Below are positions 5,155 through 15,976 of a stretch of DNA of 64,000 bases, piece after piece. The first letter of the stretch is position 1. Every line of letters starts with the position of its first letter. A model generated the notes under the pieces. The model had not been told where the DNA came from, did not search any database, and saw only the letters and a program-made list of their open reading frames with translations. The position numbers and the translations under genes are program-made. Source of the stretch: Escherichia coli (GTDB taxonomy: Bacteria > Pseudomonadota > Gammaproteobacteria > Enterobacterales > Enterobacteriaceae); assembly GCF_003334815.1 (NCBI RefSeq), contig NZ_QOWO01000003.1; one strand, given 5' to 3'.

Positions 5155-5913
5155 TCACGCCACCCCAATCTCCATCCCATCAAACCCCACCTCAAACCCT
5201 GACGGTAGTGCGTTTTCCATCAGCCACGCATCAAACTGGTGGCTGATATGGGTCAGAATCACCCGTGGCGAGCGGATAACCTGATTCAGCGCAAGCACGG
5301 TATTTAAATCACAGTGATTACGCGGTGCATCCGCGCGCGGCGGGTGACTGCAATCCATCACCATTACCTGCGGCTGATTATTGCGTAAAAATTTCAGCGT
5401 TTTTTCCGGCAAGCCTGCGGTGTCAGACAGCCACGCCACCCGGCTGTGTGCCGTTTCCAGCAGATAACCGAAGGTCAGTTTTGAGTGGTTGAGCGGCAGG
5501 GGCGTGACCTGTAACCCCTGCAAATCAAACACCACAAACGGTTCCACCGTGTGGCTGAAATCAAGCAGGCCCGGATGTTTAAACAGATCGTCGCAGCCCT
5601 GTTCATCCGGCGGGCCGTAAACCGGGATCGGATCGCCAACGCCCCAGCGCAGCGGAAACAGCCCCTGGACGTGATCCATATGATAATGCGTCAGCAAAAA
5701 CTGCTGGAACGATCCGGGCGACCAGCGATCGGCGAGATCGTGCAGCCCGGCGTCGATCAGGGTGATTGCGTCGTTAAACTTCACTACGCCGCTGCACGGT
5801 TGGCGGCGATACTGCGGCGAGCGCCGCGCTCTGGCGCAGGCCGCACACTCGCAGCCCCATGCCGGAACGCCCTGTGCGCCGCCGGTGCCGGTGAGCGTGA
5901 GGGTCAGGCTCAT
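5155..5913 (-). CDS. phnP: phosphoribosyl 1,2-cyclic phosphate phosphodiesterase (metallo-beta-lactamase fold)
   Basis: 252-aa ORF; HYHMDH metal-binding motif; last gene of phn operon. Confidence 0.92.
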
Positions 5914-5914
5914 G

Positions 5915-6349
5915 TTACAGCGCCTTGGTGAAGCGGAAGTGGCTCTGCTCGTAGCCTTCGCGCAGATAGAAACGGTGCGCGTCGTGGCGCTTCACGTTGG
6001 TCGAAAGTTCGGTCATTTCGGCCCCGGCCTGGCGGGCTTCTTCTTCTGCCCACGCCAGTAACTTACTGCCGACGTTCAGACCGCGCGCCTGCGGCATTAC
6101 CACCAACTCCTGAATTTCGCCGATCCAGTTGACATGATGCAGATGAAACTGCAAATGCAGGCCGATCATGCCGACAACTTCGCCATCAAGCAGCGCCAGA
6201 TGGTAGCGCATGTTTGGGTCGCGCAGATTGGCGTTAAAACCCACGCGAAACGCGTGGTGGTCAAACTCCGCCTGTTTTAGCTCACAAATCAGCGCGTAAA
6301 CCGCGTCGGTGTCGTACTGCGTGGCCGGGCGAAGCTCACAAGCAGGCAT
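5915..6349 (-). CDS. phnO: aminoalkylphosphonate N-acetyltransferase (GNAT)
   Basis: 144-aa ORF, GNAT-like; operon position. Confidence 0.9.
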
Positions 6350-6893
6350 GGTGTTTCTCCTTCTGATGGATCAGCGTCAGCAGCGTGTCGACCGACTGGC
6401 GCAGGCTGCCGTCATTGTTGAGCGTATGGCAATCCTGTGGAGTATAGCGGGCGGCGCGCGCCAGGCGGGCGTTAATTTCACTGGCGTTTTCACGGCCACG
6501 GTTTTCCAGGCGCTGGCGGAGGATCTCCGGCGAAACCTGTAAACAGACGGGCAGCAGCGCCGATTGATAGCGCGCCCGCGCCTGCGGCAGATGGGCGCGT
6601 GAGCCGTTGACCAGCACGTCGAATCCGGCGTGCAGCCAGAGATCAATCTCGACGCCGACGCCATAATACAGACCGTTAGCGTGCCAGCTTAAGGCCAACA
6701 GATTTTGCCCCGCGCGGGTAAAAAACTCCTGCTCGCTCAGGGCGATATGGTTTTCACTTCCGGCGCTGGCATCGCGCGTGATGTAGCGATGCGCCACCAG
6801 TAACTGAGTTTGTTCCCGCAGGCGGAGTTCCGCCAGCAGGCTGTCTTTCCCGGAGCCGGACGGCCCCATTAACCAAATCAGTTTTCCCATCAT
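6336..6893 (-). CDS. phnN: ribose 1,5-bisphosphate phosphokinase
   Basis: 185-aa ORF with P-loop GPSGSGKDS; overlaps phnO start by 14 bp. Confidence 0.92.
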
Positions 6894-8029
6894 CAGAACA
6901 CCCTTTTACCCTGACGCCAGACGTGGTCGATATGAATATGATTGTCCTTGCGATGCGCCAGCACCAGGTCGGCGCGTTTGCCCTCGCCAATCACCCCGCG
7001 ATCCTGGAGATTAAGCGCCTGCGCTGGATTTTTAGTCACCAGCTTCACCGCCTGCGGCAGCGTAAAGCGGTTGCTCTGGTCATCGGCGACGCGAAATGCC
7101 GCATCGATCAGGCTGGCGGGGTAGTAGTCGGAAGAGAGGATATCCAGCAGGCCAAGCTGCGCCAGTTCACTGGCCGCCACGTTGCCGGAGTGCGAGCCGC
7201 CGCGCACAATATTCGGCGCGCCCATCAGCACGTTCATGCCATGCTTGCGCGAGGCTTCCGCCGCTTCGAACGTGGTGGGAAATTCGGCGATCACGCTGCC
7301 AAGCTGGTGAGATTCAGCAACGTGGGCGTGGGTGGCGTCATCGTGGCTGGCAAGCGCAATTTTTCGCGCGCGGCACAGGGCGGCGATGGATTCGCGATTC
7401 GGCTGCGACCAGCGTGCGGCGAGCGCCAGTTGCTCTTCTTCGTACTGCTGCATCTGCGCATCAGTGAGGGAGTATTTGCCCTGATAATATTCGCGATACT
7501 TCTCGCGGTTGGCGAACTGGCGCTGGCCCGGCGAGTGGTCCATCAGCGACACCAGCGTCACCGGCTCGCGCTGCACCAGTTTTTCAAACAGCGGCAGCGT
7601 GGTGTGATGCGGCAGTTCGCAGCGCAGATGCAGACGGTGCTCGGCGCGGTTGACGCCGCGTTTCTGCGTCTCTTCGATGGCGTTGATCATCTTCTCCAGA
7701 TTCTCCAGCCGATCGCCGCCGTCGCGCACGTCGCCAATTGCCACGGCATCCAGTACGGTGGTGATGCCGCTCGCCACCATCAGCGCGTCGTGGCTGCTCA
7801 TCGCCGAGTGGGCAGGCCAGTCAACTTTCGGGCGCGGGGTGAAGAATTTATCCAGATTATCGGTATGCAGCTCAATCAGCCCCGGCAGCAGCCAGCCGCC
7901 TTCGCCGTCCATCGCCTCCGGCAGGCGGCTCTGGCTTTCGGCAAAGGCGCGGATTTCGCCGTTCTGCACCTCCAGCGAACCGCTTACCACCTCGTTTTCC
8001 AGCACCAGCTTAACGTTATTGATAATCAT
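6893..8029 (-). CDS. phnM: C-P lyase pathway amidohydrolase-family protein (RPnTP diphosphatase)
   Basis: 378-aa ORF; metal-dependent hydrolase His motif (ELHTDN); 1-bp stop/start overlap with phnN. Confidence 0.92.
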
Positions 8030-14056: not shown

Positions 14057-14144
14057 GTAGGCCGGATAAGGTGCTTGCACCGCATCCGGCATCAACGCCT
14101 GCACATTGTCGGATGCGACGCCGGGGCGTCTTATCCGACCTACG
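14057..14144. repeat. REP/BIME palindromic element pair (phnD-phnE intergenic)
   Basis: Seen directly: gtaggccggataaggtgcttgcaccgcatccggcatc and cggatgcgacgccggggcgtcttatccgacctacg. Confidence 0.85.
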
Positions 14145-14146
14145 AT

Positions 14147-15163
14147 TTACTGCACCGCTTTACTCACCGAACTCATCGCGCTTAGCGCGTTGTTCAGGCG
14201 GTCCAGGTCATCCAGCTGCGCCTGAATCTCGGTGGTTTTTGCCAGCTTGTCCTGCTCATTCAGTCCTTTATTGCTTTTCACGCCCTGCATCTCTTTAAAC
14301 AGCGCGAGCTGGCGAATCGGCACCAGTTGCAGGTCGCTGGAAGCGCGGAATGGCGCCCAGCCCAGGCGTTCCAGCACCGCTTTTTCTTCCGGCGTTTTGC
14401 CGTAGTTCATAAAGAAGTCGTAGATCTTGTCTTTGGTGGTTTCGGAAAGATTCTTGCGCCAGACGATCGGATCGCCTGGGATCAGCGGCGACTTCCAGAT
14501 CACCTTCAGTTCTTTCAGCTTCTCTGGCGCGGAGGTTTTCAGCTTGTCGAGGTTTTCGGTGTTGTTGGTGGCAACATCCACCTGCTTGTTGGCGACGGCC
14601 AGCGCGTTGGTTTCATGCCCGGCGTTGACGGTGCGCTTGAAGTCGCTGGCGGAGATATTGTTTTTGGCGAAGACGTAGTAGCCGGGGACGAGGAAGCCAG
14701 AGGTGGAGTTAGGATCGCCATTGCCAAAGGTGAGATCTTTCCGCTTCGCCAGCAGATCGTTCAGGTTGTTGATCGGACTGTCTTTGTTGACGATCAACAC
14801 GCTCCAGTAACCCGGCGATCCATCCGCCGCGACCGTCTGGGCGAAGACCTGGCCATTGGCGCGATCCACCGCTTCCATCGCCGACAGATTGCCGTACCAG
14901 GCGATATCCACTTTATTGAAGCGCATCCCCTGGATAATGCCCGCGTAGTCCGGGGCAAAGAAGGCGTTGACCTTCACGCCCAGCTTCTTCTCCATATCCT
15001 GCAAGAACGGCGTCCATTGCGGTTTCAGGTTTTGCTGTGATTCCGTTGAAATAATGCCGAAATTCAACGCCTTTTCCTGCTCTTCGGCGTGCGCCGGGCT
15101 TAACAGGGTGCTGAGGCTGAACATGCTGGTGAAGGCCAGCGAGGCAATTATCTTAGCGTTCAT
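14147..15163 (-). CDS. phnD: phosphonate ABC transporter periplasmic binding protein
   Basis: 338-aa ORF with signal peptide MNAKIIASLAFTSMFSLSTLLSPAHA. Confidence 0.92.
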   Translation of the reverse strand: MNAKIIASLAFTSMFSLSTLLSPAHAEEQEKALNFGIISTESQQNLKPQWTPFLQDMEKKLGVKVNAFFAPDYAGIIQGMRFNKVDIAWYGNLSAMEAVDRANGQVFAQTVAADGSPGYWSVLIVNKDSPINNLNDLLAKRKDLTFGNGDPNSTSGFLVPGYYVFAKNNISASDFKRTVNAGHETNALAVANKQVDVATNNTENLDKLKTSAPEKLKELKVIWKSPLIPGDPIVWRKNLSETTKDKIYDFFMNYGKTPEEKAVLERLGWAPFRASSDLQLVPIRQLALFKEMQGVKSNKGLNEQDKLAKTTEIQAQLDDLDRLNNALSAMSSVSKAVQ

Positions 15164-15187
15164 TCGTTTTCCTCAATGATGGGGATG

Positions 15188-15976
15188 TCAGGCAGCTTTC
15201 GCGTTCTCTTCGACGCGGTTAATGCTGCGGTAGAGATGGTCAAAACGTTCGTTATCAAACTGTTGGCTGCTGCCGTCGTAGAAGACGTGCCCCTGGCGCA
15301 GGGCGACGATGCGTTCGCAGTAGCGCAGGGCGTAATCCACCTGATGCAGCGTGACGACCACGGTGATGCCGTCGTTCTGGTTGATGTCGCGCAGGGTGTC
15401 CATCACGATGCGCGCTGATTCTGGGTCCAGCGAGGCGATGGGTTCATCGGCCAGAATCACTTTCGCCTGCTGCATCAGCGCACGGGCAATCGCCACACGT
15501 TGCTGCTGGCCGCCGGAGAGGGTGGAAACGCGCTGATGGGCAAAATGCACCATGCCAACGCGGGTCAGCGCCTGTAACGCGCGCTGTTTCTGCTCGCCGG
15601 TGAACCAGCTAAAACAGGTGCGCCAGAACGGCGTGCTGCCGAGCGCGCCAATCAGCACGTTCTCCAGTACGCTCAGGCGGTTCACCAGGTTGAATTGTTG
15701 GAATATGTAGCCGGTATGGGCGCGGCTTTTGCGGATATCGCGGGCCAGGCGGCCTTCGCGCTGGACTGTGCGGCCCAGCAGCTCGATATGGCTACCGACA
15801 GATTTATCGCCGGTAATCAAACCGCTTAAGTGACGTAAAAGGGTGGATTTTCCGGAACCCGACGGCCCAAGCAGAGCCACCATTTCACCGTGATGAATGT
15901 TCAGATCAACCGCATGCAGCGCCTGATGCTGATTGAAGGTTTTGGCGAGCTTCTCGACACGGATAATCGTTTGCAT
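15188..15976 (-). CDS. phnC: phosphonate ABC transporter ATP-binding protein
   Basis: 262-aa ORF; Walker [10 protein letters not shown], signature LSGGQQQR; first gene of phn operon. Confidence 0.93.

Follow-up and report, generated by a model that had tools for sequence, protein, structure and literature searches.

Stop/start overlaps and palindromic repeat inserts at the gene junctions of the Escherichia coli phn operon

This report concerns the junctions between the genes of the phn operon in a 64,000-nucleotide stretch of Escherichia coli DNA (hereafter the window; contig NZ_QOWO01000003.1 of assembly GCF_003334815.1), where stop and start codons overlap at many junctions and palindromic repeats occupy a few others. 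On the minus strand, positions 5155-15976 hold the K-12-type operon phnCDEFGHIJKLMNOP at 100.0% identity (rounded). Its 14 genes follow the RefSeq annotation of MG1655 and of the best-matching genome, with yjdN upstream and the convergent yjdP downstream, and 80% or more of the region is covered in 5386 of the 5426 complete genomes. A preliminary description of the same DNA had suggested that repetitive extragenic palindromic (REP) elements mark segments of differential mRNA stability within an otherwise tightly coupled polycistron. We compared the junctions with those of 80 phn loci collected via PhnK, onto which all Phn proteins were mapped; in other species the start codon was taken as the one nearest the aligned E. 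coli N-terminus, and single distances may be off by a few nucleotides (nt).

Results

Most junctions are overlapping or abutting, and their spacing is conserved

Read directly from the stop and start codons, the junction distances are +24 nt between phnC and phnD (C/D; the other junctions are abbreviated likewise), +105 at D/E, +20 at E/F, 0 at F/G, -4 at G/H (ATGA), -1 at H/I (TGATG), +4 at I/J, -4 at J/K, +110 at K/L, -4 at L/M, -1 at M/N, -14 at N/O and +1 at O/P. The seven overlapping or abutting junctions listed in the preliminary description (F/G, G/H, H/I, J/K, L/M, M/N and N/O) are exact in every case. I/J had rightly been left off that list, solely through a change private to this window: a C>T substitution at 10424 converts a CAG codon of phnI to TAG (10422-10424, minus strand; Q351*, with loss of the last four residues), and this TAG replaces the usual 8-nt overlap with a 4-nt gap. 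In all 5379 other E. coli genomes of the database that hold the segment, the codon reads CAG, not TAG, and the I/J distance is -8. A second private change, at window position 7108, alters PhnM (L308I; CTC>ATC on the coding strand) and is found neither in MG1655 nor in the best-matching genome. Inside the upstream gene, 6-12 nt before each overlapping start, lies a Shine-Dalgarno-like motif (GGAG, GAGG or AAGG), as judged by eye.

Among co-directional E. coli gene pairs, 707 of 2987 (24%) are spaced by -8 to +6 nt, the range that we adopted for coupled pairs, and such short-distance pairs are 4.5-fold enriched in subunits of heteromeric complexes (Huber et al. 2023, PMC10666635). Eight of the 13 window junctions fall within this range (binomial p = 0.004 against 24%), with N/O, at -14, outside it. 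When the six overlaps are instead set against a within-operon overlap rate of about 30%, which is our own estimate, the excess is weaker (p = 0.17). The overlap density is enriched, yet typical for an operon that encodes a protein complex. PhnGHIJ forms a complex with PhnK and PhnL, and PhnGHIJK is the purified core complex.

The same spacing recurs in relatives. G/H, H/I and I/J lie within -8 to +6 nt in 82-87% of 76-77 loci from Proteobacteria, as compared with 13% of loci at K/L, 2% at C/D and none at D/E or E/F. Within the Enterobacterales, F/G, G/H and M/N keep to this range in 96-100% of loci, and the distances at F/G, G/H, H/I, I/J, J/K, L/M and M/N are nearly fixed. The idea of a tightly coupled polycistron is therefore well supported, both by the conservation of the junctions from F/G to J/K and from L/M to N/O in Enterobacterales and by the Shine-Dalgarno-like motifs inside the upstream genes.

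Inverted REP pairs lie at K/L and D/E and a BoxC element lies after phnP

The preliminary description had placed REP elements in three larger gaps, namely K/L, D/E and the one downstream of the operon. The first two hold inverted REP pairs; the third element has no REP core and belongs to another repeat family (Table 1). At K/L and D/E we recognized four imperfectly palindromic units of about 34-36 nt, in which the core is of the GCCGGATG…TTATCCGGCCTAC type and the tail reads GTAG/CTAC. Their inverted pairing across a short linker (in mRNA sense, Y-13 nt-Z for the K/L pair and Z-17 nt-Y for the D/E pair) makes each pair a bacterial interspersed mosaic element (BIME). The 110-nt K/L gap leaves 6 nt ahead of the Y unit, so that the BIME starts 7 nt past the phnK stop, and 21 nt after the Z unit; in the 105-nt D/E gap the BIME starts 3 nt past the phnD stop and leaves 15 nt after the Y unit. 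Both starts are within 15 nt of the stop codon. The K/L gap sequence matches a median of at least 40 places per genome, which marks it as part of a high-copy dispersed family, and its Y-unit 34-mer is repeated identically at 63774-63807. Two further inverted REP pairs occur in the window, at about 35326-35420 and at 63709-63807, the second of which holds this 34-mer. The curated MG1655 record, checked for REP annotation, yielded no repeat features; EcoCyc presumably annotates REP elements at K/L and D/E.

Table 1. Features of the phn operon and its junctions in the window
Feature	Position	Strand	Remarks
BoxC / PIT / TMECO no. 22 (type A mm)	5096..5131	+	Convergent phnP-yjdP gap; consensus match
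Partial second BoxC arm, two of three blocks	5032..5055	-	Inverted relative to the first
phnK/L BIME	8728..8810	-	mRNA sense: Y-type REP 8810-8777, 13-nt linker 8776-8764, Z-type REP 8763-8728
phnL Shine-Dalgarno and spacer, conserved	8707..8727	-	…CACGAGGCGAAAA, ATG at 8706
phnD/E BIME	14057..14143	-	mRNA sense: Z-type REP 14143-14108, 17-nt linker 14107-14091, Y-type REP 14090-14057
phnE Shine-Dalgarno and spacer	14042..14056	-	AGACCGGAGCCAAAC, ATG at 14041; kept in other genera and in both REP and BoxC alleles
phnC, ABC transporter ATPase	15188..15976	-	24-nt spacer to phnD
phnD, periplasmic phosphonate-binding protein	14147..15163	-	Stop TAA 14149-14147
phnE pseudogene, K-12 cryptic allele	13254..14041	-	Frameshift from third GCTGGCGT copy
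phnF, GntR-type regulator	12508..13233	-	20-nt spacer from phnE; abuts phnG (TGAATG)
phnG, phnH, phnI, phnJ, C-P (carbon-phosphorus) lyase core	9572..12507	-	
phnK, ABC-type ATPase bound to core complex	8817..9575	-	Stop TGA 8819-8817
phnL, phnM, phnN, phnO, phnP	5155..8706	-	

Whether the D/E BIME is fully extragenic depends on the phnE start, which is annotated twice: the curated record NC_000913.3 places it at 14092, inside the REP Y unit, and the Prokaryotic Genome Annotation Pipeline (PGAP) places it at 14041. The BIME is extragenic with the PGAP start, and half of it would lie inside phnE with the other. The curated start is probably wrong, as judged from the Shine-Dalgarno sequence ACGGAGCCAAAC ahead of 14041, which is conserved in other genera as well as in REP and BoxC alleles, and from the BoxC alleles themselves, which likewise favour 14041.

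Both gap transcripts are predicted to be highly structured, with folding energies of -61 kcal/mol for the 110-nt K/L gap (z = -6.7) and -50.5 kcal/mol for the 105-nt D/E gap (z = -5.0). In the minimum-free-energy fold of K/L, the first 3 nt after the stop pair with the GGC of the Shine-Dalgarno sequence; it is speculative, but in this model the BIME stem could juxtapose the phnK stop and the phnL Shine-Dalgarno sequence and thereby keep the two genes coupled. A scan of the minus strand for intrinsic terminators (a GC-rich hairpin followed by a U-run) found none in the K/L, D/E or post-phnP gaps, and no internal promoters were detected on the operon strand in the gaps scanned. One terminator-scan match within phnE was discarded as a false positive: it is the triple GCTGGCGT repeat at 13613-13636, known as the K-12 phnE frameshift and phase-variation repeat. 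The 132-nt gap upstream of phnC carries no repeat element and no unusual structure (folding z = -0.35). Pho-box-like 11-bp periodic repeats upstream of phnC, at 16021..16053 on the minus strand, are a candidate pho box of the phnC promoter.

An Rfam search of the operon elements returned matches to naRNA4 (RF02564) only. The D/E BIME scores 69.1 bits on the plus strand, which is antisense to phn, against 50.5 bits on the minus strand, and the K/L BIME scores 42.7 and 36.4 bits, which is under the gathering threshold of 59.5 bits. The match at D/E appears to reflect a shared Y-linker-Z build, and an RNA gene is not implied. Between yjdN and yjdM, at 16616-16892 on the minus strand, lies the REP325 array, with three tandem 100-bp units that score 95-111 bits for naRNA4. 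Its copy number varies, with six units in MG1655 and four in strain N18-04097, both judged by alignment offsets, and three in the window.

No REP core was found in positions 5009-5154 downstream of phnP. The element there follows the BoxC consensus CCCTCNCCC-N3-6-GGGNGAGGG-N3-GGGNGAGGG, of which 5096-5130 on the plus strand is the sole exact match in the window, with 0 expected in shuffled sequence. It maps exactly to TMECO no. 22, which is listed at MG1655 4,314,285-4,314,320 by Holder et al. 2015 (PMC4666352), who describe TMECO loci as hypervariable between strains. Members of this family occur at a median of 16 places per genome. The K-12 structure after phnP is present at full length in 3100-3594 genomes, and the gap ranges from 27 to 146 nt among E. 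coli, with alleles of 76, 34 and 27 nt in which the element is truncated or absent. BoxC after phnP is dispensable.

Inserts account for the large gaps and alternate between REP and BoxC

Insert-free relatives show what the K/L junction looks like without a repeat. In Citrobacter, Leclercia, Enterobacter, Cedecea and Hafnia it measures 7-10 nt (TAA-GAGGCCAAC-ATG) and is essentially a Shine-Dalgarno sequence; this whole spacer corresponds to the stretch retained ahead of phnL in the window (Table 1). Other genera carry one to three REPs of their own at K/L, and one record carries a BoxC array. In every allele, the K/L inserts sit between an unaltered PhnK C-terminus (…VLQN) and the conserved Shine-Dalgarno spacer, and the D/E inserts are likewise placed between an unaltered PhnD C-terminus and a conserved Shine-Dalgarno spacer. 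The inserts are located where coding sequence and overlaps escape disruption. Without them the window gaps would be about 25 nt at K/L and about 20 nt at D/E. The two gaps are large because repeats were inserted there, and the statement that REPs occupy exactly the three larger gaps is therefore circular, apart from its third case being BoxC; what stands is that K/L and D/E hold REP pairs.

The inserts are also polymorphic within E. coli. Allele counts are coverage classes taken from BLAST summaries with flanks included, and a few alleles were read base by base. The K-12 (BIME) structure is found in 4842 E. coli genomes at K/L and in 3877 at D/E, and the remaining alleles include BoxC, in about 580 genomes at K/L and about 1500 at D/E. 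Those read include a 176-nt BoxC pair at K/L (strain 1EC187) and single or paired BoxC elements of 61-124 nt at D/E (strains 042, SMS-3-5 and A38), the element being single in 042 and paired in A38. In strains 042 and 1EC187, each of the three sites holds BoxC (a pair of 176 nt at K/L, a single element of 61 nt at D/E, and one after phnP); their operons contain no REP, phnE is intact and the other junctions are those of K-12. Because these two strains carry BoxC at all three sites and no REP, whatever effect the inserts have would not be REP-specific. This alternation of REP and BoxC at the same junctions inside an operon is the one mildly new point to emerge from the comparison of alleles; we did not find it described in the BoxC paper (PMC4666352).

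Three observations on individual alleles are added here. The phnK stop is TGA in 12 of 12 K/L alleles with an insert and in 2 of 9 without (Fisher p = 0.0003, uncorrected and ignoring phylogeny). One locus (L010) reads TGA-GGCCAAC at K/L, as though an insert had been excised between GA repeats. A record titled Pseudocitrobacter faecalis DSM 27453 encodes a PhnK that is 99% identical to that of E. coli, has E. coli-like flanks at K/L and D/E and contains BoxC arrays 298 nt and 251 nt long, which suggests horizontal transfer or a mislabelled contig.

A strong hairpin follows phnD across Proteobacteria

D/E and K/L differ sharply in how regularly they contain structure. Among the 42 loci in which phnE directly follows phnD, the gap measures 40 nt or more in 41, with a median of 71.5 nt, and none falls below 33 nt. 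Every one of these 41 gaps contains a local hairpin that reaches -17 kcal/mol or stronger and in 32 cases starts no more than 15 nt from the phnD stop. The sources of these hairpins, which span Gamma- and Alphaproteobacteria, are unrelated: E. coli K-12 has a BIME, Citrobacter single REPs, and Kluyvera, Leclercia and Enterobacter BoxC pairs; elsewhere they are Pseudomonas-type REPs or, as in Vibrionaceae and others, unique stems. Scoring of U-runs past the D/E hairpins of other species was set aside as unreliable, the best-hairpin windows having merged several stems. The C/D and E/F gaps of the same operons are mostly shorter than 40 nt and rarely structured. At K/L the median gap is 22 nt; it reaches 40 nt or more in 24 of 79 loci, 16 of which contain a strong hairpin, and the inserts are sporadic, genus-specific and polymorphic within E. 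coli. By this comparison, the D/E pattern suggests a conserved, expression-setting need for structure after the binding-protein gene, and the K/L inserts look opportunistic.

Discussion

We propose that the overlaps of the phn operon represent conserved coupling, that the D/E hairpin sets the ratio of phnCD to phnE-P expression, and that the inserts at K/L and at the terminus are opportunistic passengers of minor effect at most. We assign this reading a probability of roughly 0.6. The coupled class would comprise F/G to J/K and L/M to N/O, with spacings of 0, -1, -4, -8 and -14 nt and the Shine-Dalgarno sequence inside the upstream gene. We infer termination-reinitiation coupling at these junctions from their spacing, from their conservation and from reporter experiments published for other E. 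coli pairs, in which reinitiation fell by 40-80% at +14 nt and was nearly abolished at +38 nt (Huber et al. 2023, PMC10666635). Such coupling would fix subunit ratios for the PhnGHIJ(K) complex and its partners. At C/D, D/E, E/F and K/L, the downstream gene would start independently, and only these junctions and the convergent 3' end would have room for repeats between a stop and the next Shine-Dalgarno sequence. GC-rich palindromic repeats would have landed there, as BIMEs in K-12-like strains and as BoxC in others. The D/E insert may replace an ancestral hairpin after the binding-protein gene, of the kind found in nearly all Proteobacteria, and would raise the phnCD message, and hence PhnD, relative to the permease and the downstream genes. 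This could occur by blocking 3'-5' exonucleases, by partial attenuation of transcription, or by both, as at malE-malF. The K/L insert would be a recent passenger that varies between lineages and exerts at most modest polarity on phnL-P.

Several considerations weigh against this proposal. Loci and genomes share phylogeny, and our counts exceed the number of independent events; start assignment in other species is heuristic, with errors of a few nt in individual distances. The control junctions are few, and hairpins were present in 5 of 20 C/D gaps and in 6 of 9 E/F gaps. In GC-rich genomes, most intergenic stretches of at least 60 nt contain some hairpin. For BoxC/PIT, the earlier literature reports neither promoter nor terminator activity. 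Finally, both BIMEs lie within 15 nt of a stop codon and belong to a class for which reduced translation of the preceding gene has been reported, an effect that opposes the predicted gain in PhnD.

In a neutral account, REP and BoxC elements would insert beside stop codons, in untranslated space, and leave phn expression measurably unchanged at all three sites. The near-universal D/E hairpin would then reflect simply that, in GC-rich genomes, gaps of at least 60 nt tend to fold or to attract such elements. We regard this account as rather unlikely. In its favour, the inserts vary within E. coli and between genera, an insert-free K/L junction is common, and the element after phnP is dispensable; TMECO loci are also hypervariable, and PIT elements reportedly showed no promoter or terminator activity. 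It fares less well at D/E, where the gap is nearly always long and always holds a strong hairpin near the stop, in operons whose C/D and E/F gaps are rarely structured. In addition, REP stabilizer activity has been established experimentally at analogous binding-protein/permease junctions, according to PMC12306157.

The preliminary description assigned a role to all three sites: REP hairpins would punctuate the stability of the message, dividing it into phnCD, phnE-K and phnL-P with stepwise lower abundance, and a terminal REP would protect the 3' end. REP hairpins are known to block exonucleases or to attenuate transcription (Newbury 1987, Espeli 2001 and Khemici 2004, all cited in PMC12306157), and both phn BIMEs are strong hairpins by their z-scores. 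In line with this account, the only transcript data that we found, from RNA sequencing (RNA-seq) under phosphorus starvation, show phn as one full-length transcript with 'varying/decreasing' coverage, together with low-expression assembled units phnGHIJK and phnLMNOP that split at K/L (Li et al. 2013, PMC3734233, with the units in supplementary files 6 and 7), and PhnGHIJK coincides with the purified core complex. That analysis relied on uniquely mapped reads, however, and a multi-copy REP loses its reads under unique mapping, so that a gap at K/L is expected anyway; we therefore gave the K/L break little weight and rejected the sub-operon breaks as evidence. Ordinary polarity in an 11-kb transcript likewise predicts decreasing coverage. 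Since the terminal element is BoxC and missing in many strains, and since many relatives lack the K/L insert and about 580 E. coli genomes have BoxC in its place, we consider punctuation at all three sites improbable. As a marker of differential mRNA stability, the hairpin is plausible at D/E (41 of 42 loci), weakly supported at K/L (24 of 79 loci, sporadic) and to be abandoned at the terminus.

The position of the BIMEs also invites the opposite prediction. REPs that begin less than 16 nt past a stop are reported to stall ribosomes and so depress translation of the gene before them (Liang 2015, cited in PMC12306157), and at 3 nt (D/E) and 7 nt (K/L) the phn BIMEs could stall the terminating ribosome and, through mRNA cleavage and rescue by transfer-messenger RNA (tmRNA), lower PhnD and PhnK. 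The TGA stops of K/L insert alleles fit this mechanism, but that correlation ignores phylogeny. The distance from stop to hairpin varies among alleles, with the BoxC hairpin at about 13-22 nt, and a drop in binding protein relative to its permease would run counter to the usual stoichiometry of ATP-binding cassette (ABC) importers; we judge this explanation still less probable than punctuation. A role at the DNA level, with the BIMEs serving as gyrase or HU/naRNA nucleoid-organization sites alongside the adjacent REP325 array and unrelated to phn mRNA, is very improbable: gyrase binding of BIME-2 and a part for REP325 in nucleoid condensation have been published (cited in PMC12306157), the D/E BIME exceeds the naRNA4 threshold and three naRNA4 units lie 2.5 kb away, but the match shows only a Y-linker-Z build, the K/L BIME is under the threshold, and BoxC or unrelated hairpins at the same sites argue against a sequence-specific DNA-protein function.

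Coupling by overlap together with a ratio-setting hairpin at D/E remains our preferred reading, and the exchange of repeats seen among alleles raises a further idea, which we offer tentatively and would not bet on. REP/BIME and BoxC may be functionally interchangeable, with selection keeping some stable hairpin after phnD and tolerating one after phnK. If true, this would give BoxC a role at the RNA level, as an intercistronic stabilizer or attenuator. To our knowledge, the function of BoxC has been unknown since the 1990s. The natural allelic series at D/E, with a BIME in K-12, a single BoxC in 042 and paired BoxC in A38, would be a ready-made test set for such a role.

The phn operon, its stop/start overlaps, the BIMEs and BoxC are all of described kinds and already known. 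The occurrence of REP hairpins behind binding-protein genes is textbook knowledge, and the phn operon with its overlaps and REPs has been in databases for decades. The consequences for the field are accordingly small. The value of the analysis lies in its corrections, namely that the third REP is a BoxC element, that the correlation between gaps and REPs is circular, and that the curated phnE start, inside a REP, is probably wrong, and in one lead: the REP/BoxC alternation in natural strains is a cheap experimental handle on RNA-level action of BoxC.

The closest known systems are the REP stabilizers of malE-malF and hisJ-hisQ (Newbury et al. 1987; Higgins et al. 1982/1988). As in those operons, phn has an inverted REP pair between the binding-protein and permease genes, forming a strong hairpin without a U-tract inside one transcript. 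In phn, unlike in either, the REP has the ATPase gene phnC upstream of it as well, BoxC occupies the site in about 1500 E. coli genomes, and the case is known from sequence. The BIMEs resemble the REPs of Liang, Rudd and Deutscher 2015 in starting 3-7 nt past a stop, the direction of effect reported for those REPs being opposite to the stabilizer model. They also recall the Rho-dependent attenuation by BIMEs described by Espeli, Moulin and Boccard 2001, in that a BIME lies within a transcription unit with lower coverage downstream; a role of Rho in phn is hypothetical. With naRNA4/REP325 (Rfam RF02564; Qian et al. 2015) they share the Y-linker-Z unit, but those units form a tandem array and the phn BIMEs are single units inside an mRNA.

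The element after phnP agrees with BoxC/PIT/TMECO as described (Bachellier 1999; Hoyne 2000; Holder et al. 2015, PMC4666352) in its consensus, its intergenic position and its variability between strains. In other E. coli and other genera, BoxC also fills the D/E and K/L gaps inside the operon, a placement for which we found no description in PMC4666352. The overlapping junctions, finally, correspond to the coupled stop/start pairs of Huber et al. (2019, 2023; PMC6728339, PMC10666635), with ATGA and TGATG motifs, -8 and -14 overlaps, internal Shine-Dalgarno sequences and products that form one complex. They differ from those pairs in that coupling in phn is predicted from sequence, and in that the regulator gene phnF abuts phnG though PhnF is not a known partner of the complex.

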